From a virus (Duplodnaviria; Heunggongvirae; Uroviricota; Caudoviricetes), in the IMG/VR virus record IMGVR_UViG_2695420421_000005: DNA of 30,231 bases. One strand, written 5' to 3'. A program made the translations under genes and the position numbers. Under the pieces are notes generated by a model, which was not told where the DNA came from, searched no databases, and was given only the letters and a program-made list of their open reading frames with translations. Shown here in pieces: positions 213-15,006 of the stretch (positions are counted from its first letter, which is position 1; every line of letters begins with the position of its first letter).

Positions 213-2120
213 ATGAGCAAAGTAAAAATCGGTGAATTAATAAACTCACTTGTTAGCGATGTTGAGTCAATAGATAACTCTGACCGTCCTCAAGGGGAAA
301 AAACAAAAAAAATAAAGGCTGTTGCATTAAAATTTAAAAATGCATTATTTAATGACAAGCGAAAGTTTAGGGGGAAAGGATTAGAAAAAAGAATTACAGC
401 CAACACATTCAATGCCTATATGAGCAGGGCCAGAAAACGGTTTGATGATAAACTTCATCATAGCTTTGAAAAAAATATACATCGCCTATCTGAAAAGTAT
501 CCTTTATATAATGAGGAGCTATTGTCATGGCTTTCTCTACCTGCTGCCGATATTCGCCAGAGAATGTCAACTTTACAGGCAAAATTAAAATTAATTCTCC
601 CTTTATCAGAAGATTTATCTAATATCAGAATTGGTGATAACAAAAATCATAATAAGTTATTAAAATTATCAAATAAATATAAAGAGTGGCAATTCGCAAT
701 TTCTGATTTAACTAGCGATAACTGGAAAGATAAGCGCGATTATTTATATAAATTACTACAGCAAGGATCTGCCTTGCTTGAGGAGTTGAATCAGCTAAAA
801 GTTAACCATGAGATTCTCTATCATCTTCAACTAAGCCCTGCCGAACGCGCATCTATCCAGCAACGATGGGCGGACGTTCTGCACAATAAGAAACGTAACG
901 TGGTGGTCATTGATTACCCTAAATATATGCAAGCTATTTACGATATTATAAATAGCCCTGCTACATTAAATAATCTAAACACTCGTTCAGGTATGGCTCC
1001 TTTGGCATTTGCACTTGCTGCATTGTCAGGAAGACGAATGATTGAGATTATGTATCAAGGTACATTTACTGTTTCTGGTAAGTATACCGTTGATTTTTTA
1101 GGCCAAGCTAAAAAAAGAACTTCTGATGATATAACCAGAAAAATATATACATTATGCGAAGCAAAAACATTTGTTTATTTAATAAATGTACTTCGCTCAT
1201 GCCCAGCAGCATCTGATTTTGATGATGTCGTTAAAGGTTATGGAGATAACGACACACGCTCTGAAAACGGACGTATTAATGCCATATTAGCAAAGGCTTT
1301 TAACCCGTGGGTTAAATCATTTTTCAAAGATGACCGCCGTGTTTATAAAGATAGTCGTGCTATTTATGCCCGTATTGCGTATGAAATGTTTTTCCGCGTA
1401 GATCCTCGTTGGAAAAACGTAGATGAGGATGTTTTCTTTATGGAAATTTTAGGCCATGACGATGAAAACACTCAATTACACTATAAGCAATTCAAGCTGG
1501 CCAACTTCTCAAAGACATGGAGGCCAAATACTGGAAACGAAAATACCAGGCTGGAAGCATTGCAGCAGCTTGATGACGAAATGCCTGGATTCGCCAGAGG
1601 AGATGCCGGGGTTCGTCTGCATAACACAGTTAAGCAGCTGGTAGAGCAGGACCCCTCTATAAAAATCACGAACAGCACTCTAAGAGCATTCAAATTTAGC
1701 CCAACAATGATTAGCCGATACCTGGAATTTGCTGCTGATGCTCTGGGGCAATTTGTTGGCGAAAATGGACAATGGCAGCTGAAAATAGATACTCCAGAAA
1801 TCGTTATGCCTGACGAAGAAGAGCTGGAAGCAATACCTGAACAGACGGATGAATTATCAGATGATGACGATCTGGATGACGACGAAATTGAGATAGAGGA
1901 AGAGGAAGAGGAAGAGGAAGAGGAAGAGAGCGTAGAAGAACAGCAACCGCCCGCGCCTTCTTCACCTGTATCTAAGCCGGTATTTAAGCCTGTGAGAAAT
2001 ATTGGTGATGGTTCATACGTTGTTGAGTTTCATTATAATGGCCAGAATTATGCTTGGTCCGGCAGTGCAAACAGCCCTATGTCAGCAATGCAGTTAGCAT
2101 GGCTGACATATTTCGGATAA
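213..2120 (+). CDS. telN: Protelomerase (telomere resolvase) TelN, 635 aa
   Basis: Translation closely resembles my recollection of N15 TelN (N-terminus MSKVKIGELIN..., internal ...NTRSGMAPLAFALAA..SGRRMIEIM... and ...RSENGRINAILAKAFNPWVKSFF... blocks, acidic C-terminal tail); RBS AGGAGAGG 5 nt upstream of ATG; adjacent telomere palindrome. Confidence 0.95.
   Translation: MSKVKIGELINSLVSDVESIDNSDRPQGEKTKKIKAVALKFKNALFNDKRKFRGKGLEKRITANTFNAYMSRARKRFDDKLHHSFEKNIHRLSEKYPLYNEELLSWLSLPAADIRQRMSTLQAKLKLILPLSEDLSNIRIGDNKNHNKLLKLSNKYKEWQFAISDLTSDNWKDKRDYLYKLLQQGSALLEELNQLKVNHEILYHLQLSPAERASIQQRWADVLHNKKRNVVVIDYPKYMQAIYDIINSPATLNNLNTRSGMAPLAFALAALSGRRMIEIMYQGTFTVSGKYTVDFLGQAKKRTSDDITRKIYTLCEAKTFVYLINVLRSCPAASDFDDVVKGYGDNDTRSENGRINAILAKAFNPWVKSFFKDDRRVYKDSRAIYARIAYEMFFRVDPRWKNVDEDVFFMEILGHDDENTQLHYKQFKLANFSKTWRPNTGNENTRLEALQQLDDEMPGFARGDAGVRLHNTVKQLVEQDPSIKITNSTLRAFKFSPTMISRYLEFAADALGQFVGENGQWQLKIDTPEIVMPDEEELEAIPEQTDELSDDDDLDDDEIEIEEEEEEEEEEESVEEQQPPAPSSPVSKPVFKPVRNIGDGSYVVEFHYNGQNYAWSGSANSPMSAMQLAWLTYFG
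1896..1925 (+). repeat. (GAGGAA)5 in-frame hexanucleotide tract encoding a poly-Glu run in the TelN acidic tail
   Basis: Five perfect tandem GAGGAA units read directly. Confidence 0.9.
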
Positions 2121-2132
2121 AGCATACAGTAA

Positions 2133-2164
2133 AGGCACCGAATTATCGGTGCCTTGTTGTGTGG
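2133..2164. terminator. Intrinsic terminator shared by telN (+) and the convergent minus-strand small-ORF operon
   Basis: 9-bp stem AGGCACCGA/TCGGTGCCT with ATTA loop (2133-2154) followed by TGTTGTGTGG; located 13 nt after the telN stop and just after the minus-strand BRO-N fragment stop. Confidence 0.6.
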
Positions 2165-2165
2165 C

Positions 2166-2330
2166 CTACCTCGCCTGCCCCTTTTCGTCCTCATCCAACT
2201 TTCTGATGGCCGTAGAATCAATACCCGCCGCCATACACACATCAGATGCAACAAACCACGGTTCGCCGTTAATCATCACTACACGAACCTGATGCTCTTC
2301 CTGAAAGGAAAAGACTGCTAACGCGCTCAT
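2166..2330 (-). pseudogene. BRO-N domain fragment (truncated antirepressor-like gene), 54 codons
   Basis: Minus-strand translation MSALAVFSFQEEHQVRVVMINGEPWFVASDVCMAAGIDSTAIRKLDEDEKGQAR* matches the conserved start of BRO-N/antirepressor proteins (F.F....VR...INGEPWFVA.DV......D) but stops after ~54 aa; GGAGG 4 nt upstream; ATGA overlap with upstream ORF. Confidence 0.45.
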
Positions 2331-2560
2331 TCAGCCTCCTTATCGTGCAGCAATTGCGACGAGAGCGACGCTGAATACCCCTGTGCTTCGTGTGTTAGCT
2401 CACACGCAATTTGAAGGAGTTTCCCTGCTTCTGAGAGATAAATCGACGCCTCACAACTGGAGATTGTCCGATGGGCTGATGATACGAGCGCATAGACCTG
2501 AGCCAGACGTTCATCCAACGATTCCAGCAGGCCAACAGTGTTCATTTTTACCTGATTCAT
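2327..2560 (-). CDS. Hypothetical small protein (77 aa), middle gene of a translationally coupled minus-strand operon
   Basis: ORF with GAGGTGG RBS 4 nt upstream of ATG; stop overlaps next start (ATGA); no family recognised. Confidence 0.45.
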   Translation of the reverse strand: MNQVKMNTVGLLESLDERLAQVYALVSSAHRTISSCEASIYLSEAGKLLQIACELTHEAQGYSASLSSQLLHDKEAE

Positions 2561-2721
2561 GCAGCCACCTCGCGCACCGGAATACGGGCAGACAATACCA
2601 GGACAAACCGGCTGGCGAACTGGCGACGAGCTTCCCGTTCAGATGACGCGATGGTGGAAAGATGATGGATGTGTGACTTTTTGTCTGTGCGAACGACTGC
2701 CGCAAATTTGAATTTGAACAT
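2557..2721 (-). CDS. Hypothetical small protein (54 aa; MFKFKFAAVVRTDKK...), possible small DNA-binding regulator
   Basis: Minus-strand ORF below the ORF-track size cutoff; GGAG 8 nt upstream of ATG; stop overlaps the start of the 77-aa ORF (ATGA). Confidence 0.35.
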   Translation of the reverse strand: MFKFKFAAVVRTDKKSHIHHLSTIASSEREARRQFASRFVLVLSARIPVREVAA

Positions 2722-2746
2722 GGTATGCACTCCGTTTAATTGGTCG

Positions 2747-3048
2747 TGCTACCACCAGAGTTCCTACGCTCTATATGGCGGTAGCCCAGACGGGGGTAGG
2801 AATACCGGTAAACGAAGAAACCGGCCAGCTAAAAGCTGCCCCATCTGAGCCACCATAAATTTGGTGTACGCAGATTTTACACACAAAAAAACACGCAGGC
2901 GCGTGTTGTGCGCTTCATTTACTCGGGTTCCTACGCCCGGCTACGGGATTTACCGTAGCGGAGTAACTTTACCGTCAAAACGACGCGCACGTCAATAATT
3001 TGCAAAGGCATTTTACCCCGTGACCAGTCACGGGGACAGGTGTTTTTA
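2747..3048 (+). ncRNA. Candidate structured noncoding RNA or regulatory leader (strand and ends uncertain)
   Basis: ~300 bp without a credible ORF; several GC-rich hairpins (ACACGC-AGGC-GCGTGT 2891-2906; 7-bp stem 2940-2946/2953-2959); GTTCCTACGC repeated at 2760-2769 and 2927-2936; possible -35 TTGAAC 2714-2719 and -10 TTTAAT 2735-2740 (15-bp spacer, suboptimal); ends at a hairpin plus T-run. Confidence 0.25.
3016..3048 (+). terminator. Hairpin CCCCGTGA-CCAG-TCACGGGG followed by a T-run; possible terminator or protein-binding palindrome
   Basis: 8-bp GC-rich stem 3016-3023/3028-3035 with TTTTT at 3042-3046; the palindrome core recurs inverted at 13753-13768. Confidence 0.4.
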
Positions 3049-3096
3049 TAGTTTGCTTAAACGAGTGTTCAGAAGTTGATCGTTAATCAAAGGCCA

Positions 3097-3384
3097 TTAC
3101 TGATTAAGAGATTGGAAATACCTAACTAACTTACCGGCATCATCACATTTTTCTTTATCTTCTTCCTTAACATAGCCGCGACAAAAGGCTGAATAAAATT
3201 TTGCATTTTCAGAAGCAAAAGCAGCCGTCGAAAGGAGCAGTTCTTTGCATGATTCTTTTGATGCAGCATCGGGATTATTTTTACATGCAAGCTCTGCTGA
3301 TGAGTCAATAACAGAAATGCTATCTTCCTGGGCATAAACCGCAGCAGAAAAGGCAAAACATAAAACAAAAATAAAACTCTTCAC
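3097..3384 (-). CDS. Small secreted protein (95 aa) with signal peptide and four cysteines
   Basis: N-terminus MKSFIFVLCFAFSAAVYA|QE has a typical signal peptide; AGGAG 5 nt upstream of a GTG start; no family recognised. Confidence 0.6.
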   Translation of the reverse strand: MKSFIFVLCFAFSAAVYAQEDSISVIDSSAELACKNNPDAASKESCKELLLSTAAFASENAKFYSAFCRGYVKEEDKEKCDDAGKLVRYFQSLNQ

Positions 3385-3411
3385 TTTATCTCCTGTAACA
3401 GTTATCGCAAC

Positions 3412-3807
3412 TCAATCAACTTTTTTAGCATCAGCCATACGCTTCAACCAGTAATCAACAATCGGTTGCTCATCCACAGAATGTTTACCAGGTATAACTC
3501 GCCAGCTGTCTGCCGAAAGGCTACCGTATCTATGCGGGAAAAGGCATTTCTTTAGCTCCTGCCATGTGCTAGGAAAACCGTCTGCCAAAGTGCCAATTAA
3601 CAGAAAAGGGACAAAAATCAGGGCTACAAACCATCTGGCAAGAAAGTGCTCAACAATAACCTCTTCACCGTTATAGTAATACGCATACGTATCCCATATA
3701 CGAATTTTCCTTACCCTAAAAATGGCCTTATGCTGAGAACGACTTAGCTTGATGCGAATGTATCCCTTATCCAAGAGGGATTGGTGTTTGTATGATTGAA
3801 CAGCCAT
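3412..3807 (-). CDS. Hypothetical membrane protein (131 aa from the internal ATG)
   Basis: Hydrophobic segment WFVALIFVPFLLIGTL; ATG at 3807 lies 2 nt after the upstream gene stop; the ORF-track start at 3819 is a GTG overlapping the upstream gene. Confidence 0.55.
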   Translation of the reverse strand: MAVQSYKHQSLLDKGYIRIKLSRSQHKAIFRVRKIRIWDTYAYYYNGEEVIVEHFLARWFVALIFVPFLLIGTLADGFPSTWQELKKCLFPHRYGSLSADSWRVIPGKHSVDEQPIVDYWLKRMADAKKVD

Positions 3808-3809
3808 TT

Positions 3810-4136
3810 TTAACCCCACTCACCATCAGCAAACAAAGCGTTATACTCTGACAATGGTAGACGGTTGCCCTCGATGTAGAGATTCAGTTCATACTTCGTC
3901 TCCGGGTTTTCCTTGTCTGCTCGTTCCCAACGCTCAGCAGCCTTACGCGCCAATAATTCCACTGCTTTCAGGTAATCCTCCGTACGGAACCAGCCAAAGA
4001 TAAGGCCACGATCTGTTACAGCCCAGGCGACCTTTTTTTCTTCCTCCTGGATAGCCTTAATGCGTCGATCGCATTCATCCCGGCAGAACTGCAGCTGACG
4101 GTAATCAAGTTTGTCCAAAAATGCAGTAGTAGACAT
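3810..4136 (-). CDS. Hypothetical protein (108 aa)
   Basis: ORF in the same orientation as repA with compact spacing; no family recognised. Confidence 0.6.
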   Translation of the reverse strand: MSTTAFLDKLDYRQLQFCRDECDRRIKAIQEEEKKVAWAVTDRGLIFGWFRTEDYLKAVELLARKAAERWERADKENPETKYELNLYIEGNRLPLSEYNALFADGEWG

Positions 4137-4140
4137 ATTT

Positions 4141-4332
4141 TTACTCCCCGTTCACCGAAAAATCACGATAGAAACGTTTCCACATACGATAAGTCTGCGC
4201 GAGTTGTTCACCACGAAACATCGCCTTCCTGGCCTTCATGTTTTCCTTGTGAGACTTTCGATCTATGAACCAAAACCATTGCTGGAACACACAAAGCAAG
4301 AGACACAAAGATAATATCCACTGATTACCCAT
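4141..4332 (-). CDS. Possible small membrane protein (63 aa) translationally coupled to repA
   Basis: ATG at 4332 overlaps the repA stop; hydrophobic ILSLCLLLCVFQQWFWFI followed by a basic tail; short, so uncertain. Confidence 0.3.
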   Translation of the reverse strand: MGNQWILSLCLLLCVFQQWFWFIDRKSHKENMKARKAMFRGEQLAQTYRMWKRFYRDFSVNGE

Positions 4333-7300
4333 AGAAAGCGCCCTGCTCTTCGTAGCTGCATGAGCTATTCCCGGTAATGTATTCTCGTAACCGCCGCAGT
4401 TCATTGCTGGACAAGTGATCCATGAACTCTGTGAGGTACAGAGATGCAAACGTCATAGCTATGCTGGTTGATGACCATGATGACATAGTGGCCAGCTCCT
4501 CACCGGAAAGCGCACTCATCGCCCAGGACTCAGGAACAGCCACCGGCAATACGGCCAAAGCCTCAGAAATTACTGAATGAGGGGCGTTTTGAACCTGCTC
4601 GTTTGTGGATCGCGTTTTATCATCCATATATATATTGAGATCCAAATCGCGATCCATTTCGATGGCTGTCTTCTCGGCTTTACGCGTTTTTAGGGTTAGG
4701 CCATCTTTCTGACGCTGAACAAGAATATCCAGCATAAATGCCGCTGATTCAGGCTCAACAAAACGCAAGGTTGGACGCTTATCGCCGTCTCTGCCGCGAC
4801 GTTTACCTGTTTTAAGGCCAAGAGAGTCGCAAATGTTTTTAAACAACGCTTCCGGCACTTTAGGCTTCCCTTTTGGCGTCATAAAACCACCAATGTGCAG
4901 AACGTTATTCAACAGGTCACGGCGTTCGGCTGTCATGAGATTATCTCGAGCGAATTTGAGACGCTCCTGAGTCGCCTCGCCGGTCATAGTCTCAGGGTTG
5001 ATACCGCAGTCGATAAAGTACTGCCGGAGAGTTGCTGATTTAAGCGCATAGAAACCGCGCGCCCCGACTTCAACAGTAGGAGTAGCTTTTACCTTGTGAT
5101 CGATTATTCCAGGGAATTTAGTTTTAAAGACATCATCAGCCTGCTCGCGAGTCATCGCGGTCACTACAAAATATTGCCACTGTCCCGCCTGACGGTATGC
5201 GTAGGTAAAATTGATGGCTGCTTCTTCCCGGTCGTAACGACGAGCTGTTACCTCATCTAAAAGCATTGTTTCATAGCGGCGAACTTTGTCTCGAGCACCA
5301 TCGAAATAGAATTTCAGTGTGCCTTCTTCAACCGGTAGTTTCAGTTCGTTTTCAATATCCCAGCGGACAAGTTTTGCCTGTTCTTCAAGCGTCAGCGCGC
5401 GTTTTTTTAGCAGTTCTTCACGCTCTGATTCTTGTGGAGTTTCTGTATTGAGGTGCAGATCCAGTGTCTGTTCCCACACAATATCCCGCGCTTCTTTACG
5501 CAGATCTTTACCGATATCATTCGCAGCATAATCGGTGCCCAGCGGCGATACCTTATAACCGTCGCTGTGCATGATGCAGATCATGTTGCTGGCGTAGTCG
5601 TTACGCGCAGTCGCTTCAATTGCGGCTGCTTTAATTTTCATCCTGGTAAAGTCGGTATTGGCCACCCCCATTGATATACGGTCGCCATCGAAAATGACAT
5701 CCGTCAGTTCACCGTTCATACCTGCGGTAGCAAGCAATGCCTGGGCGAATGCTCGTTCTATTTTTTGCGGGTCAGTTTCACGTTTTGCACGAGCTTTATC
5801 AAAGCCGATAATAAATTCTTTTGCTGTACGGTCGCGGCGTAGCATTTGCACTGCGTCGCTGGGTACAACTTCACCACAGAACATGCCGAAATGACGGTCA
5901 AAATGTTTTTGCTCAATCGACACGCCGGATGAAATAGACGGGCTATAAATCAGGCCGTCGTATTTTTTGACCATCTTTTTCGGTTGATTGGTAAATGCTT
6001 CAACTTCTGGCTCTGGTTTGTTTTTCTGGTTTACACACAGAAATTTCTTACCAGGAAAATGCATTCTCAGGGTGGCTGTCACATCTTCTGCAAAGGTGGA
6101 GCTGTCGGTGGCCAACATGATTTTTTCGCCATCCGATACAGCTTTCACCACCTCGGTCATGATGCGATCTTTTTCTGTATAAAAAACCCGGATTGGCTCA
6201 CCTGTTTCGCGGTTGCGAACATCAACAGGTAATTCAATTACGTGGATCTGCAGCCATGCCGGTAAACCTAGTTCTTCACGGCGTTTCATAGCCAGTTCAG
6301 CCAGGTCAACCAGCAGATCGTTCGCATCAGCATCCACCATGATTGGGTGTTGTTCCGTTCTGGCCAGCGCGTCAATTAGCGTATTGAATACAGCCACCGG
6401 GTTTTCCATAGCCCGACCGGAAAGAACGGCACGTAGCCCTTGTGTGGCCTCGTCAAAGCCAAAATAGTCGTGCTGGCGCATCAACGGTTGCCAGCAGTTT
6501 TTAACAATCGAGTTTATGCAGATGGTCAGTTTACTGGCGTATGGAGCCATTTCCTGATAGCCAGGGTCCTGATAGTGCAGGATATCGGCTTTTACACCTT
6601 TTCCTTCAGTCATCATTTCCCACAGGCCACCAATAAGGGAAACACGGTGAGCTACAGAGATACCGCGTTCTGAGCTATGCATTAACGGTCGTAACAATCC
6701 AGTAGATTTGCCGGAACCCATACCAGCACGAACGATGACGATCCCCTGTAGTGATTGCACGTACTTCAGGACGTCATCGGTCATTACCGAAGTTTCAAAA
6801 CGCTTATAGGTGATATGTTGAGGGCGTTTATTGGGATCAGTTATGCGTTCGCTGAAAGAGCGCGGAGCCTGGGCAATACGGCACTTTTTATTCAGGCGAC
6901 GGGCAATGTGGTCTTTTACCGTAGCGCGATAGATATTTTCCAGCCCCATTTCACGCAGAACGATGCAGAACATGTTAAACAAATCTGACGGACTGTTAGG
7001 AACCGGACAGGTTAGCATGCCAATATCCACCGCTCTCAGCAGCTCTTTGGCAAAAGTACGACGGTTATCCCGCTTAATTGTCTTCAGGCGGTTGAGCGTC
7101 AGAGATAGCAAATCAGTGCCGGTTTTCAGGCGGTTTGCTGTTGCAAATAGTTGACGTGCTGTTTCACGAAGTCCACGTAGTTTGTGCAGGTCGTTGAAGT
7201 CACTGCACTCCATTTGCGGATCGTCTTCAAAAGTTGGATAGACGCAGCGGACATCGTTGAATTTCGATAAGATTTCATAGCCAGTCCGCAGGCCGGTATT

Positions 7301-8320
7301 CCCTTTTCCTTCTGTGGCTGATTTCCGGTCATTATCCAGTGCGCAGGTGATTTTTGCCGCCGGGTACATGTTTACCAGTTGTTCCACAACATGAACCATG
7401 TTGTTAGCGGATACAGCGACAACCACAGCGTCAAAGCGTTTATCTTTTTTCGTGGCAAGCCAGATGGATGCACCAGTAGCAAAACCTTCTGTAACAGCGA
7501 TGTTTTGCGCCCCTTTCAGCTCACCGATAACAAAGCAGGCACCGACGAAATCGCCGCTGGTTACTGCGCTGGTCTGGTATTTCCCACCTTGTTTGTCGAT
7601 TCGCTGCCAACCCACAATACGACCATCGTAACGACCGTCCAGGTGAGCCAGAGGGATAGCCATATATGTGGTTGGCCCCCGGTTCCATTTCGCACTGTCG
7701 TGACTGGTCACGCGACGCACATCACATGAACTAAAAACGTCACGAATACCTTTTTTAATCGCATATGGCCATGAGCCGTCTTCTGCAGGAGCATGTTCCC
7801 ACGCGCTGTGGAATGCCAGCCATCCCAGCAAACGTTCATGGTCCATTTGGTTGTTTTTCAGGTCATTAATTCGTTTTTGTTCTTCACGGCGACGACGTGC
7901 TTCGGCCTGACGTTTTATTCTTGCCCGTTCTTCTTCCGGTTGTGCGACCACGGTCGCATTATTCCGTTGTTGCTCACGGCGATATTCAGAAAACAGGAAG
8001 GAGAAACCGCTCCATGAGCCAGCATCGCTGCCTTTATGGACGAAGTTAATGAACGGGTAATCAATCCCTTTGCTGTGTTCCAGCCGGGAGTAAATTTCTA
8101 CGCGTCCTTTGAGGCTCTTTTCGAGAGCTTCTGGAGATGTTTTATTGTATGAAGAGTAACGCTCAACACCCCCGCGAGGGTTGAGTTGGATGTTGTCGGA
8201 ACAGGCAGACCAGTTGATACCAGCCATCTGTGCCAGCTCGGTTAGTTCATCCCGTGCTGCTTCAATTAGCGAGAACGGATCGCTGCCAAAGCGATCCGCA
8301 TAGAAATCGTTTAATGTCAT
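4325..8320 (-). CDS. repA: Replication protein RepA (primase-helicase), 1331 aa
   Basis: Size and position match N15 RepA (~1320 aa); Walker A motif GMGSGKST in the helicase region; sits between the telN side and the cB immunity region as in N15. Confidence 0.93.
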   Translation of the reverse strand: MTLNDFYADRFGSDPFSLIEAARDELTELAQMAGINWSACSDNIQLNPRGGVERYSSYNKTSPEALEKSLKGRVEIYSRLEHSKGIDYPFINFVHKGSDAGSWSGFSFLFSEYRREQQRNNATVVAQPEEERARIKRQAEARRRREEQKRINDLKNNQMDHERLLGWLAFHSAWEHAPAEDGSWPYAIKKGIRDVFSSCDVRRVTSHDSAKWNRGPTTYMAIPLAHLDGRYDGRIVGWQRIDKQGGKYQTSAVTSGDFVGACFVIGELKGAQNIAVTEGFATGASIWLATKKDKRFDAVVVAVSANNMVHVVEQLVNMYPAAKITCALDNDRKSATEGKGNTGLRTGYEILSKFNDVRCVYPTFEDDPQMECSDFNDLHKLRGLRETARQLFATANRLKTGTDLLSLTLNRLKTIKRDNRRTFAKELLRAVDIGMLTCPVPNSPSDLFNMFCIVLREMGLENIYRATVKDHIARRLNKKCRIAQAPRSFSERITDPNKRPQHITYKRFETSVMTDDVLKYVQSLQGIVIVRAGMGSGKSTGLLRPLMHSSERGISVAHRVSLIGGLWEMMTEGKGVKADILHYQDPGYQEMAPYASKLTICINSIVKNCWQPLMRQHDYFGFDEATQGLRAVLSGRAMENPVAVFNTLIDALARTEQHPIMVDADANDLLVDLAELAMKRREELGLPAWLQIHVIELPVDVRNRETGEPIRVFYTEKDRIMTEVVKAVSDGEKIMLATDSSTFAEDVTATLRMHFPGKKFLCVNQKNKPEPEVEAFTNQPKKMVKKYDGLIYSPSISSGVSIEQKHFDRHFGMFCGEVVPSDAVQMLRRDRTAKEFIIGFDKARAKRETDPQKIERAFAQALLATAGMNGELTDVIFDGDRISMGVANTDFTRMKIKAAAIEATARNDYASNMICIMHSDGYKVSPLGTDYAANDIGKDLRKEARDIVWEQTLDLHLNTETPQESEREELLKKRALTLEEQAKLVRWDIENELKLPVEEGTLKFYFDGARDKVRRYETMLLDEVTARRYDREEAAINFTYAYRQAGQWQYFVVTAMTREQADDVFKTKFPGIIDHKVKATPTVEVGARGFYALKSATLRQYFIDCGINPETMTGEATQERLKFARDNLMTAERRDLLNNVLHIGGFMTPKGKPKVPEALFKNICDSLGLKTGKRRGRDGDKRPTLRFVEPESAAFMLDILVQRQKDGLTLKTRKAEKTAIEMDRDLDLNIYMDDKTRSTNEQVQNAPHSVISEALAVLPVAVPESWAMSALSGEELATMSSWSSTSIAMTFASLYLTEFMDHLSSNELRRLREYITGNSSCSYEEQGAFYG
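7943..7958. repeat. sopC-like centromere-type inverted repeat TGCGACC-AC-GGTCGCA (copy 1, inside repA coding sequence)
   Basis: 7-bp inverted arms with 2-bp spacer, same architecture as the F sopC core TGGGACC-AC-GGTCCCA; five copies in this window. Confidence 0.5.
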
Positions 8321-14045: not shown

Positions 14046-14065
14046 CCCTGTAATTTTATACAGTA
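14046..14065. promoter_or_regulatory. LexA (SOS) box CCCTGTAATTTTATACAGTA
   Basis: CTGT-N8-ACAG with an AT-rich spacer and ACAGTA end, matching the E. coli LexA consensus; overlaps a possible -10 (TACAGT) 17 bp after TTGAGT; preceded by GGCTATAAAATTT also found at the cB/cro operator. Confidence 0.6.
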
Positions 14066-14087: not shown

Positions 14088-14306
14088 ATGGTATTAGATT
14101 CAATGACTGAAGCACCTGTATCAACTCTTGAAGAACTCGGATCAAACCTAAAAGACATCGACGCCGTTTTGGATCTGGTTAGCGTTGCTCTGGCTTCTCC
14201 AGAAGCCAGCTTGCATCTTGGCGAGATTTCACGACTTGTTAGTATGTCGCGGGAGATTGCTCAGAATTGCCAACAAGTTATTGCTGTTGAGTGTTTACAT
14301 CATTGA
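14088..14306 (+). CDS. Small acidic protein (72 aa; alternative start at 14103), candidate SOS-regulated antirepressor
   Basis: First ORF downstream of the LexA box; product assignment is inference by analogy with the N15 LexA-controlled antirepressor. Confidence 0.5.
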   Translation: MVLDSMTEAPVSTLEELGSNLKDIDAVLDLVSVALASPEASLHLGEISRLVSMSREIAQNCQQVIAVECLHH

Positions 14307-14349: not shown

Positions 14350-14637
14350 TCAATAGACGGCATTAATATTAATCGTTGCACCGCATGCTTGGGCATATTT
14401 TGATAAAGTTTTCATGCTTGCCCCTAAAGGATTGCTTTCCAGGCGGCTGATAGCTGACGGGCGCAATCCCATTCGTTCAGCCAGAGCTGACTTCGTTAAA
14501 CCTGCTCTTTCCCTCATTTCGTATAACATTTCGACCATCTCCAGCTCTTTATCGGCCTCTTCATATCCTTTGATGGCTTCTGGAGTGTTGAGAAGTTTTT
14601 CTTTTACTTCGTTAAACGGGATGCCTTTCGCTTTCAT
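14350..14637 (-). CDS. HTH XRE-family antitoxin (HigA-like), 95 aa
   Basis: HTH segment LTKSALAERMGLRPSAISRLE; start overlaps the toxin stop by 1 nt; toxin-first gene order typical of higBA. Confidence 0.85.
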   Translation of the reverse strand: MKAKGIPFNEVKEKLLNTPEAIKGYEEADKELEMVEMLYEMRERAGLTKSALAERMGLRPSAISRLESNPLGASMKTLSKYAQACGATININAVY

Positions 14638-14948
14638 CAGTTCATCTCCTTCAGGCGAGTTCTGGCGATTTCGATAGCCTTCACCGGTGTTTTCTGTGTC
14701 TTTTTTACAAATGCATGCAATAGATAAATTTCGTTACCAGTCGCGTAGGCGTACAGCGTTCTTGCGATGTTTTTATCCCCTACTCGTAGTTCAAAAAGCC
14801 CTCCACCTATTACACGGCTATGGGGCATCTTCAGTTTGTTGCCTTCTTTCTCCAGTCGCTCAATTAATCTGGTCATGCGACCTCGCAAATCATCTGGTAG
14901 TTCAAGCAGTTCATCCAGTGCTGCAGGGTGGGTTATCACGTTAAACAT
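14637..14948 (-). CDS. RelE/ParE-superfamily toxin (HigB/Gp49-like), 103 aa
   Basis: Conserved IGGGLFELRVGDKNIARTLYAY core typical of HigB/Gp49-like toxins; GGAGG 9 nt upstream of ATG. Confidence 0.85.
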   Translation of the reverse strand: MFNVITHPAALDELLELPDDLRGRMTRLIERLEKEGNKLKMPHSRVIGGGLFELRVGDKNIARTLYAYATGNEIYLLHAFVKKTQKTPVKAIEIARTRLKEMN

Positions 14949-15006
14949 ATTATAGCCTCCATATCCATAAAATACACCAAAACAAGAAAACAGCGCAAAT
15001 TAAAAA

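Follow-up and report, generated by a model that had tools for sequence, protein, structure and literature searches.

An immA operon of probable N15 type in which antB is reduced to a deletion remnant

The three small open reading frames on the minus strand at positions 2721-2166 are very probably the distal protein-coding part of an N15-type immA operon, the last gene of which, antB, is present as a remnant without a function of its own. The window (the whole stretch of DNA analyzed, 30,231 nucleotides, IMG/VR record IMGVR_UViG_2695420421_000005) is, judged by its sequence, an N15-like (Ravinvirus) phage-plasmid of the linear, telomere type. The finding is real but ordinary; the operon type, composed of icd, antA, and antB, is already known (PMC4488713, PMC10612081). 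We establish here the identities of the elements, the deletion in antB and its junction, the co-variation of the RNA recognition boxes, the purifying selection on icd and antA, and the recurrent loss of antB. What has decayed is one accessory gene of a known module that is otherwise functional; its remainder is not a minimised regulatory peptide. The true regulators of the operon are two RNA elements at 2959-2774, upstream of the coordinates covered by the initial annotation.

The immA operon as a whole (2995-2132, minus strand) is located between telN (213-2120, plus strand, with the stop at 2120) and repA (4325-8320, minus strand) and is read towards telN, which is the location and direction of an N15-type immA. 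At the DNA level the region shares 94% identity with phage PhiR46_1 (a literature search on this phage found no paper), 92% with YDC107_1, and 79% with N15, where gp32, gp31, and gp30 follow in the same order, also between telN and repA. The surrounding element has complete replication, immunity, lysis, and head genes, with tail genes up to the end of the window.

The 54-, 77-, and 54-codon ORFs reported earlier were confirmed at 2721-2557 (ORF1), 2560-2327 (ORF2), and 2330-2166 (ORF3), all on the minus strand, and are identified by homology as icd, antA, and the antB remnant of an N15-type immA operon. The ORF-listing program chose a GTG start for ORF1 at 2730 (57 aa) instead of the ATG at 2721, which is the start used by the homologues, by the NCBIfam match, and by the PGAP calls on near-identical plasmids. 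The claim of translational coupling also stands: ATGA overlaps are found at 2560-2557 (ORF1/ORF2) and 2330-2327 (ORF2/ORF3), and each ORF is preceded by a Shine-Dalgarno sequence (GGAG at 2733-2730, GAGGTGG at 2571-2565, and AGGAGG at 2340-2335, respectively; minus strand). Each of the three ORFs is annotated in dozens of related records.

ORF1 matches the Icd-like family NF033153 of NCBIfam with 67 bits (cut-off 25), and is classified on this homology as an Icd-like inhibitor of host cell division, placed first in the operon as is the icd of immA. Its product is identical to the YDC107_1 protein and has four nonsynonymous differences from N15 icd (pN 0.033, pS 0.54). Within the Escherichia elements pN is 0 with pS up to 0.12, thus icd is under purifying selection. 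The same holds for antA, with pN/pS of about 0.07-0.14. None of the three is a chance ORF; ORF1 and ORF2 have conserved homologues under purifying selection.

The second cistron, ORF2, is a homologue of N15 gp31 (66% identity over 70 residues, E = 2e-30) and is matched directly by PY54 AntA (E = 3e-9). In PHROG it matches phrog_6301 (1.7e-36) and phrog_10889, labelled 'anti-repressor' (1.1e-18); both families are also matched by PY54 AntA and by the LexA-boxed AntC-like ORF of the window. By family membership, ORF2 is thus classed as an intact AntA, of the small AntA/AntC antirepressor family, and as the antirepressor of the operon. In the case of gp31/AntA, the antirepressor role is suggested by secondary citations, the homology to PY54 AntA, and the PHROG labels. 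Expression of P840 antA, which is nearly identical to ORF2, prevents lysogenisation (PMC10612081). ORF2 and the AntC-like ORF were also considered as direct paralogues and rejected as such (pairwise BLAST in the window, E = 0.28, no match); the link between AntA and AntC is seen only via PY54 AntA and the common PHROG families. The initial annotation had suggested small regulators, perhaps of the Arc/Mnt or ribbon-helix-helix kind, for ORF1 and ORF2; no match to such proteins was found in Pfam, NCBIfam, or PHROG at E up to 1.

Upstream of icd, the predicted control region begins with a candidate sigma-70 promoter, Pa (2995-2966, minus strand, as all elements of this region), consisting of a -35 hexamer TTGACG (2995-2990), an 18-nt spacer, and a -10 hexamer TAAAGT (2971-2966). 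Both hexamers, found by a consensus scan, are largely conserved in the nine relatives that align over this stretch, and the promoter would initiate transcription near the first base of an isrK/seqA-like leader RNA (2959-2880). The leader matches Rfam isrK (RF01394) over model positions 1-77 with 62.8 bits, above the gathering score of 50. Its predicted fold (z = -3.1) has two 5' hairpins followed by an intrinsic terminator, which the terminator scan places at a stem at 2907-2890 with a T run; N15 carries an annotated rho-independent terminator at the homologous place. The predicted arrangement of a promoter and a leader with intrinsic terminator upstream of a small RNA is that of immA. The small RNA (2860-2774) is a full-length match to Rfam C4 (RF01695; 73.6 bits, gathering score 45, E = 8.6e-13) with a stable predicted fold (-44.4 kcal/mol, z = -5.6), and is accordingly assigned as the C4/CA-type antisense RNA of the operon.

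Two pairs of recognition boxes would connect these RNAs. Of the leader boxes, a1 (GTAGGAA, 2934-2928) sits in the hairpin 2 loop, and b1 (GTAAATGAAG, 2922-2913) falls in the unpaired linker. In the C4-type RNA, b' (CTTCGTTTAC, 2817-2808) overlaps hairpin 2 in its loop and 3' arm, and a' (TTCCTAC, 2802-2796) takes in the single-stranded joint together with the start of the closing stem. The downstream targets are a2 (GTAGGAA, 2767-2761) and b2 (TTAAACGGAG, 2739-2730), the latter including the icd Shine-Dalgarno GGAG; complementary sites are thus present on both sides of the C4-type RNA, and the downstream one is at the icd ribosome-binding site. The boxes lie wholly or largely within predicted loops or unpaired segments. 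Pairing was assessed by box-level co-variation counts in place of whole-RNA duplex folding, since a duplex of the C4 RNA with the leader is uninformative, because the whole RNA unfolds.

Among 11 relatives, a' and a2 are paired in 100% of 77 cells, with compensatory double changes at 4 of the 7 pairs; none of 500 shuffles reaches the observed value, and slid controls give 22-57%. For a1 and a', 89.6% of the cells are paired, again with 4 of 7 compensatory pairs and 0/500 shuffles. The b-type boxes occur in three types that co-vary with b1 and b2, as read from a box-level energy matrix that is partly contaminated by flanking GC stems. The 11 elements have four a-box types and three b-box types, in seven observed combinations. 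The co-variation of boxes and targets, perfect or nearly so, requires ongoing selection on the pairing.

The mechanism that we propose draws on the relatives of these elements. Transcription from Pa would enter the leader, with the terminator at its end; read-through transcripts would include the C4/CA-type RNA. Its a' and b' boxes may then pair with a1/b1 before the terminator and with a2/b2 before icd, where b2 covers the ribosome-binding site. By analogy with P4 CI RNA, P1 c4 RNA, and N15 CA RNA, this pairing would silence icd and antA in the lysogen by premature termination and a translational block; in the case of RNA processing, termination, and translational block we infer the steps from these relatives. 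A model for the termination step (seqA/CI/seqC) has been published, as has the isrK-STnc1160-anrP arrangement (PMC4825925). When the control is overcome, icd would be translated, and ribosomes would re-initiate at the ATGA on antA and then on the third cistron. AntA, as a small antirepressor, is presumed to neutralise the CB prophage repressor, as its relatives suggest.

The third cistron does not encode a full-length antB (gp30, ~260 aa), as it would in N15 immA. ORF3 was proposed earlier to be a truncated BRO-N protein, and its match to Pfam Bro-N (PF02498; 30.7 bits, E = 4.8e-7, gathering score 25.6) bears this out: only profile positions 1-41 of 96 are covered, while a full-length AntB covers 1-96 with its residues 14-102. 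Full-length versions, which the initial annotation proposed to look for in N15-like phages, do exist there: N15 gp30 (264 aa) and the YDC107_1 protein (AUO37525, 258 aa). The truncation itself stands, but the truncated protein is not the antirepressor, a role that by family belongs to the intact AntA of 77 aa. When aligned with YDC107_1, N15, and further full-length genes, ORF3 is seen to be the remnant of an N15 gp30 homologue. Its residues 1-51 are identical to YDC107_1 AntB at 48 of 51 positions, the exceptions being residues 21-23 (NGE vs DSD).

In respect to YDC107_1, 735 bp are missing (L001 1878-2612). The junction (2179-2181, minus strand) is a GGG microhomology of 3 nt inside the run AAAAGGGGCAGG (2185-2174), as seen from two BLAST segments against YDC107_1 that overlap by 3 nt and from direct reading of the sequences. 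Codons 52-258 of antB and about 110 nt of the 3' UTR were lost, and 51 authentic codons of about 258, less than half of the Bro-N domain, were retained; the last three codons of ORF3 (QAR) and its stop are former 3' UTR, read in another frame. A conserved C-terminal domain of ~156 residues is wholly absent. This single event would have ended the function of antB. The remnant peptide is probably still made, since the strong Shine-Dalgarno and the ATGA coupling are kept, and comparison with the relatives suggests that it is inert. The function of AntB itself is described as not elucidated (PMC4488713), and a PDB sequence search with the full-length protein gave no match. Among four sequences, too few to measure constraint, the remnant shows 2 synonymous and 3 nonsynonymous substitutions.

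Between the convergent immA operon and telN, a 10-bp GC-rich hairpin, AAGGCACCGA-TAAT-TCGGTGCCTT (2132-2155), was kept through the deletion and is also present downstream of antB in the full-length relative YDC107_1. Its predicted fold energy is -20.7 kcal/mol (z = -3.8) on the minus strand and -25 kcal/mol (z = -5.5) on the plus strand. The consensus terminator scan did not flag this hairpin after ORF3; from fold energy and position it is likely a bidirectional terminator.

One gene of the three is plainly broken, as expected if the whole immA locus were a decaying relic in which none of the ORFs is expressed or functional. We consider this extremely improbable: icd has no amino-acid change across the Escherichia elements despite synonymous divergence, pN/pS of antA is ~0.1, the RNA boxes co-vary with both target sites, relatives conserve the promoter, terminator, and Shine-Dalgarno sequences, and the genes of the surrounding element are in place. 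The decay suspected in the initial annotation is therefore that of antB and not of the locus.

The deleted allele is widespread. The same junction is found in 13 of the 17 complete E. coli genomes with the locus and in about 17 of 32 PLSDB plasmids, and the exact 54-aa peptide is encoded on at least 1000 contigs; the four allele clusters of full-length antB sum to roughly 670 contigs. The junction is identical in PhiR46_1, LR883007.1, and p13TMH22-2, and the four elements sharing it differ in leader boxes (three combinations) and in antA alleles (pS 0.23). This frequency, the strong Shine-Dalgarno and coupling that were kept, and the occurrence of one junction behind three leader-box combinations, meaning that it persisted or spread through recombination, could speak for a selected, minimised peptide, either a decoy or dominant-negative partner of the BRO-N/AntB proteins of co-resident phages, or a small regulator. 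Such a role, which the initial annotation had offered as an alternative to decay, is nevertheless very unlikely, as it is contradicted by several independent deletions, a complete loss, and a secondary frameshift of the same remnant. Besides the ORF3 junction, at least five other independent antB deletions were found, with other end points: P0011 (61 aa, 89 contigs), P0012/P0014/P0015, P0005, and P0009; a Citrobacter plasmid has an out-of-frame internal deletion after codon 16. The homologue search with the 54-aa peptide returned short proteins only and served for finding such deletion alleles, not for the breadth of the family. The independent deletions leave 0, 16, 28, 35, 41, or 51 N-terminal residues, so that no common unit is preserved. 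In a sub-lineage on 203 contigs the remnant has a 4-bp deletion and stops after codon 15, with icd and antA intact. Variants also replace the Trp that is conserved in the PWF motif (W25R, W25S), and the peptide has just the first part of the Bro-N profile and a tail from out-of-frame UTR.

The preferred reading, that ORF3 is an inert remnant, fits a gene that is not universal in the group, because antB is absent from PY54 (PMC4488713) and missing altogether from Klebsiella phage 48ST307. AntB is an accessory gene, lost repeatedly in N15-like phage-plasmids. Deleted antB alleles make up ~70% or more of the sampled Escherichia elements.

That the deleted allele predominates could be due to selection and not to neutral decay, or to no more than the sampling of successful clones. 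With an inert remnant, the loss of antB may have been adaptive if AntB imposes a cost on the plasmid prophage, such as more spontaneous induction or sensing by host defence. We regard this as possible, but with the balance against it. It is consistent with large deletions or losses that arose independently at least six times in Escherichia, Citrobacter, and Klebsiella elements, with the excess of deleted over full-length alleles, and with the strict conservation of the flanking icd and antA. On the other hand, full-length antB is kept in ~1/4-1/3 of the Escherichia elements, in N15, and in phiKO2-like and Enterobacter elements, with high conservation of the C-terminal domain, and this persistence speaks for a use of the gene in some setting. 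In addition, the counts are confounded by clonal sampling, and no link to defence sensing was found, with PADLOC (no model matched the ORFs here or the cargo genes next to them) or otherwise. A broader proposal, rather unlikely when taken jointly, is that antB is recurrently selected for loss while the icd-antA core forms a combinatorial hetero-immunity code with a leader RNA acting in trans. In this view AntB might make the plasmid lysogen unstable or expose the element to sensing by the host, and CA RNA could be countered in trans by the terminated IsrK-like leader, as a sponge or an activator.

The results are mainly of use for the correction of annotations. The 54-aa 'BRO-N domain-containing protein' of thousands of E. 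coli assemblies is, in this lineage, a deletion remnant, and the neighbouring intact 77-aa 'hypothetical protein' is, by homology, an AntA-family antirepressor; upstream, a 'transcriptional repressor' call overlies icd and an 'ash family protein' call overlies the C4 RNA gene. Of modest interest is that antB is lost over and over while icd, antA, and the RNA control remain under selection. From the combinatorial co-variation of boxes and targets, one would expect telomere phages that co-circulate to fall into several hetero-specific anti-immunity groups.

Among known systems, ORF3 resembles the BRO-N 'antirepressor-like' proteins (N15 gp30, YDC107_1 AUO37525) in passing the Pfam threshold, and differs from the full-length members in the missing rest of the domain and in the loss of the C-terminal domain. 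The control region is similar to Gifsy-1 isrK-orf45(STnc1160)-anrP of Salmonella in having a leader of the IsrK family that carries an intrinsic terminator of its own and a downstream RNA complementary to the leader. In Gifsy-1, a processed RNA of ~80 nt follows the leader, then an ATGA-coupled antirepressor gene, and trans-activation of translation by the short IsrK RNA has been demonstrated (PMC4825925). AnrP is encoded there, in an integrated lambdoid prophage, whereas icd and antA are found here. The isrK RNA is described as a structural homologue of the SeqA RNA of satellite phage P4 (PMC4825925), and the layout of leader, C4-clan RNA, and complementary site further downstream is that of seqA-CI-seqC in the P4 immunity region; as in P4, leader termination is the expected read-out. 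P4, however, controls replication genes in this way, in contrast to icd and an antirepressor here.

The initial comparison with an immI-like module was apt, as the locus is of the P1 immI type and corresponds to the N15 immA operon. The P1/P7 immI region is said to consist of the c4 antisense RNA, icd, and ant1/ant2 (Citron and Schuster; Biere et al.). Reportedly, icd is preceded by a processed RNA of the C4 family, whose a' and b' are complementary to sites upstream and downstream of that RNA; the downstream b site is said to overlap the icd ribosome-binding site, and the antirepressor to be translated 3' of icd. The present operon shares the C4-family RNA (Rfam) before icd, the two boxes, the b site at the icd ribosome-binding site, and the downstream antirepressor. 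It differs from P1 in that the antirepressor is a 77-aa AntA-family protein and not P1 Ant, in the intrinsic terminator of the leader (as in N15 and P4), and in the host element, a linear telomere phage.

The closest match is N15 immA, with Pa, the terminator Ta, the CA RNA, icd (gp32), antA (gp31), and antB (gp30). Common to both are the position between telN and repA, the orientation, the order of leader terminator, C4-type RNA, icd, antA, and antB, the ATGA couplings, and the 79% DNA identity from the leader to antA. Unlike in N15, antB is cut here to 51 authentic codons by the 735-bp deletion. The boxes also differ (a, CCTAC here and GAGAA in N15; b, CGTTTAC here and CTTGTAC in N15), and thus the two operons are predicted to be hetero-specific in their regulation.

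The three short minus-strand ORFs that the initial annotation had read as a translationally coupled group were all located, with 54, 77 and 54 codons: icd (ORF1, 2721-2557, 54 aa), antA (ORF2, 2560-2327, 77 aa) and an antB remnant (ORF3, 2330-2166, 54 aa). Consecutive ORFs are joined by stop/start ATGA overlaps at 2560-2557 and 2330-2327, and each has a Shine-Dalgarno sequence ahead of it (GGAG at 2733-2730, GAGGTGG at 2571-2565 and AGGAGG at 2340-2335, respectively). The ATG at 2721 is the start used by homologues, by the NCBIfam match and by PGAP on near-identical plasmids, whereas the mechanical ORF list begins ORF1 with a GTG at 2730. The Arc/Mnt or ribbon-helix-helix relationship suggested for the small ORFs found no profile match in Pfam, NCBIfam or PHROG. 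The ORF1 product is Icd-like (NCBIfam NF033153, 67 bits vs a cut-off of 25). Its PHROG families, as well as the N15 and phiKO2 RefSeq records, bear the label 'transcriptional repressor', presumably carried over from the former 'cA secondary immunity repressor' protein annotation. Among the Escherichia elements icd shows zero amino-acid changes at pS up to 0.12, and against N15 its pN/pS is 0.06; judged from these substitutions, the gene is under constraint.

The product of ORF3, proposed to be a truncated BRO-N protein, indeed passes the Pfam Bro-N threshold (30.7 bits vs a gathering score of 25.6, E = 4.8e-7), but the match is limited to profile positions 1-41 of 96 and thus fails on domain completeness. 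The full-length antirepressor sought in N15-like phages is present (N15 gp30, 264 aa; YDC107_1 AUO37525, 258 aa), and by homology ORF3 corresponds to the N-terminus of this AntB. The window aligns with YDC107_1 in two segments overlapping by 3 nt at window 2179-2181, between which 735 bp of YDC107_1 are absent; the sequences ...GACGAAAAGGG/TCTGC... and ...GCAGGGGG/CAGGCG... are joined into ...GACGAAAAGGGGCAGGCGAGGTAG. The truncation is a single deletion event at a GGG microhomology, with the removal of antB codons 52-258 and about 110 nt of the 3' UTR. Past the junction, ORF3 continues for three codons (QAR) into what was once UTR; its stop lies 11 nt ahead of the hairpin at 2155-2132, which the deletion spared. 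Full-length AntB has a Bro-N domain at residues 14-102 and, after it, a C-terminal domain of about 156 residues that is highly conserved; of the Bro-N domain 43% is left in the remnant, and the C-terminal domain is gone entirely.

The truncated allele is common. Among 17 complete RefSeq E. coli genomes that have the locus, 13 carry the window-type junction (full-length antB in 4), as do about 17 of 32 matching PLSDB plasmids (full-length in about 10). In a 15-billion-protein collection the exact 54-aa peptide is found on at least 1000 contigs, and the four full-length Escherichia allele clusters together on roughly 670. The junction is base-for-base the same in PhiR46_1, plasmid LR883007.1 and p13TMH22-2. 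Because the elements sharing it have three different leader-box combinations, and antA alleles apart at pS = 0.23, the deleted antB allele has persisted or spread over recombining backgrounds.

Other antB alleles, retrieved with the 54-aa peptide or found in related elements, differ in their end points and are independent deletions. In P0011 (61 aa, 89 contigs) residue 35 is fused in frame to the last 26 residues, in P0012, P0014 and P0015 residue 28 is fused to the last 17, in P0005 residue 41 is fused to sequence past the terminator, and P0009 has another, different truncation. The Citrobacter plasmid pRHBSTW-00524_3 has an internal, out-of-frame deletion after codon 16; in Klebsiella phage 48ST307 antB is wholly absent, antA leading straight to a terminator; and PY54, too, is without antB (PMC4488713). 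Decay has gone on in the window-type remnant as well: in a sub-lineage on 203 contigs a 4-bp deletion ends the reading frame after codon 15, with icd and antA still intact. Rare variants have a change at the conserved Trp of the PWF motif. Only 2 synonymous and 3 nonsynonymous differences were counted among four remnant sequences, too few by themselves to gauge constraint. The initial annotation had offered either a decayed locus or a minimised regulatory peptide. Taken together, and since no common N-terminal unit is kept across the independent losses, this evidence favours ORF3 as a remnant of a dispensable gene, and the minimised peptide is disfavoured. The loss of antB may be neutral or selected. 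No description of such recurrent, independent loss was found in the searchable literature, and the pattern is possibly worth a note.

ORF2, the gp31/AntA homologue, is 66% identical to N15 gp31 and matches phrog_6301 (1.7e-36) and phrog_10889 'anti-repressor' (1.1e-18), both also matched by the 87-aa AntA of Yersinia phage PY54. Direct alignments with PY54 AntA gave E = 3e-9 for ORF2, 1e-10 for N15 gp31 and 5e-10 for a 72-aa ORF of the window (14088-14306, plus strand). The latter shares the PHROG families of AntA and is preceded, at a distance of 25 nt, by a canonical LexA box (14048-14063, plus strand, CTGTAATTTTATACAG); N15 has an unannotated counterpart, likewise behind a LexA box (position 6565 of its record, L010). 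Expression of P840 antA, nearly identical to that of PY54, abolished lysogenisation (PMC10612081). From these relationships, ORF2 can be described as an intact member of the small-antirepressor family, of which the window thus has two paralogues, one RNA-controlled and one LexA-controlled. As its N15 counterpart and LexA box fit the published SOS-controlled antirepressor AntC (PMC3121763, PMC4488713), the 72-aa ORF is most likely antC, intact in the window. For antA, pN/pS is about 0.07-0.14, indicative of constraint. A second 'putative gp31' (AntA-like) gene lies in YDC107_1 at 3536-3760, in a variable slot upstream of the immA promoter; therefore, some elements have an additional AntA paralogue. 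Directly downstream of the antC-like gene, the stretch 14350-14950 (minus strand) encodes an HTH antitoxin (95 aa, 14350-14637) and a RelE/ParE toxin, the latter recognised by homology to pCAVP367-48; the arrangement is that of N15 gp48/gp49.

The actual regulators of the operon are RNA elements upstream of the 2166-2721 interval covered by the initial annotation. On the minus strand a candidate promoter (2995-2966; TTGACG, 18-nt spacer, TAAAGT) is followed by an isrK-like leader RNA (2959-2886; Rfam isrK, 62.8 bits vs 50) ending in an intrinsic terminator (stem 2907-2890 and a T run) homologous to that of N15, then by a C4-like antisense RNA (2860-2774; Rfam C4, 73.6 bits vs 45) and icd. The predicted fold of the C4-like RNA has the long closing stem and two hairpins of the family (z = -5.6). 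Two short boxes in it are each complementary to the leader and to the stretch directly before icd. Box b' (2817-2808, CTTCGTTTAC) shares bases with the loop and the 3' arm of hairpin 2, and box a' (2802-2796, TTCCTAC) is located in the unpaired joint and the first bases of the closing stem. Their leader targets are a1 (2934-2928), within the loop of a hairpin, and b1 (2922-2913), within the linker that precedes the terminator; those before icd are a2 (2767-2761) and b2 (2739-2730), the latter including the icd Shine-Dalgarno sequence.

In an alignment of 11 N15-like and phiKO2-like elements, the boxes co-vary with both targets. For the a'-a2 helix, pairing holds in all 77 cells (100%), with compensatory double changes in 4 of 7 pairs; none of 500 shuffles reaches the real value, and pairing falls to 22-57% in slid controls. 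For a1-a', 89.6% of cells pair, one row being off by one column in the alignment. The b boxes fall into three types, changing in step with b1 and b2, and seven combinations of the four a and three b types are seen. The searchable literature yielded no description of this combinatorial co-variation, which is possibly worth a note as well. Across window 2719-2966 and the 10 relatives, one antB junction stands behind three box combinations; with seven combinations in all, this implies that recombination within the roughly 1 kb from leader to telN is frequent. Where the C4/CA RNA gene lies, PGAP and other pipelines predict protein-coding genes ('ash family protein', a second 'Icd-like protein'), in the window (2774-2860) and at homologous places in five related records (L004-L007, L011). 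The icd/CA RNA region also bears legacy protein labels, namely N15 gp32, the 'cA secondary immunity repressor' of N15 and the 'transcriptional repressor' of phiKO2. In all these cases an RNA gene seems to have been annotated as protein.

By analogy with relatives, the C4-like RNA would be excised from read-through transcripts and would act on nascent ones, favouring a stop at the leader terminator and occluding the icd ribosome-binding site, so that its pairing would silence icd and antA in the lysogen. On failure of this control, icd would be translated and ribosomes would re-initiate on antA, whose product may neutralise the prophage repressor CB, and next on the remnant, giving a presumably inert 54-aa product. 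SOS induction would still be possible via the separate LexA-controlled AntC-like gene.

The protelomerase gene telN (213-2120, plus strand) and the gene for the 1331-aa RepA (4325-8320, minus strand) flank the locus, and the nearest relatives of the window are Ravinvirus-type linear phage-plasmids. Over window 1800-3400, identity reaches 94% with Escherichia phage PhiR46_1 and 92% with YDC107_1; N15 shows 79% identity in the leader-to-antA stretch. The near-identical RefSeq plasmid pCAVP367-48 has the full set of cB, cro, Q, lysis, terminase and lambda-like head genes, and its tail genes continue up to the limit of the 31 kb examined. In its C-terminal part (about 1860-1960, plus strand) telN contains a GAA/GAG codon run (CTCTTC repeats on the minus strand) encoding a poly-Glu/Asp tract (…DDDDLDDDEIEIEEEEEEEEEEEE…). 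The gene is annotated as frameshifted in several relatives (L004, L005); a tie to the repeat is only a guess. The immA-repA slot (3097-4136, minus strand) holds three small ORFs of 95 aa (signal-peptide-like N-terminus, named 'Spackle' in PhiR46_1), 135 aa and 108 aa. All three match PHROGs of unknown function only; PADLOC gave no match for any, and Pfam no significant match for the single one searched. The slot is variable in relatives (an 813-nt gene, IS5/ISKpn26), and Klebsiella telomere phages have telocin/immunity cassettes between repA and the protelomerase gene (PMC12042878).

N15 has genes 32, 31 and 30 at the homologous place, in the order and orientation of the window and preceded by an annotated rho-independent terminator. 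The architecture of RNA boxes and targets is that of P1 c4, and the leader, C4-like RNA and downstream site share the seqA-CI-seqC architecture of P4. IsrK has been described as structurally homologous to the P4 SeqA RNA, and Gifsy-1 has the same order of leader, processed ~80-nt RNA and antirepressor (PMC4825925). In two papers (PMC4488713, PMC10612081, both citing Ravin et al. 1999), immA names the secondary immunity locus, an operon in which icd (cell-division inhibitor) is joined by antA and antB; the function of AntB is given as 'not elucidated'. The window locus has all tested defining features of the N15 immA operon except full-length antB; it represents a common allelic form of a module already described, is in RefSeq as WP_001542490.1 and shows nothing outside known kinds.
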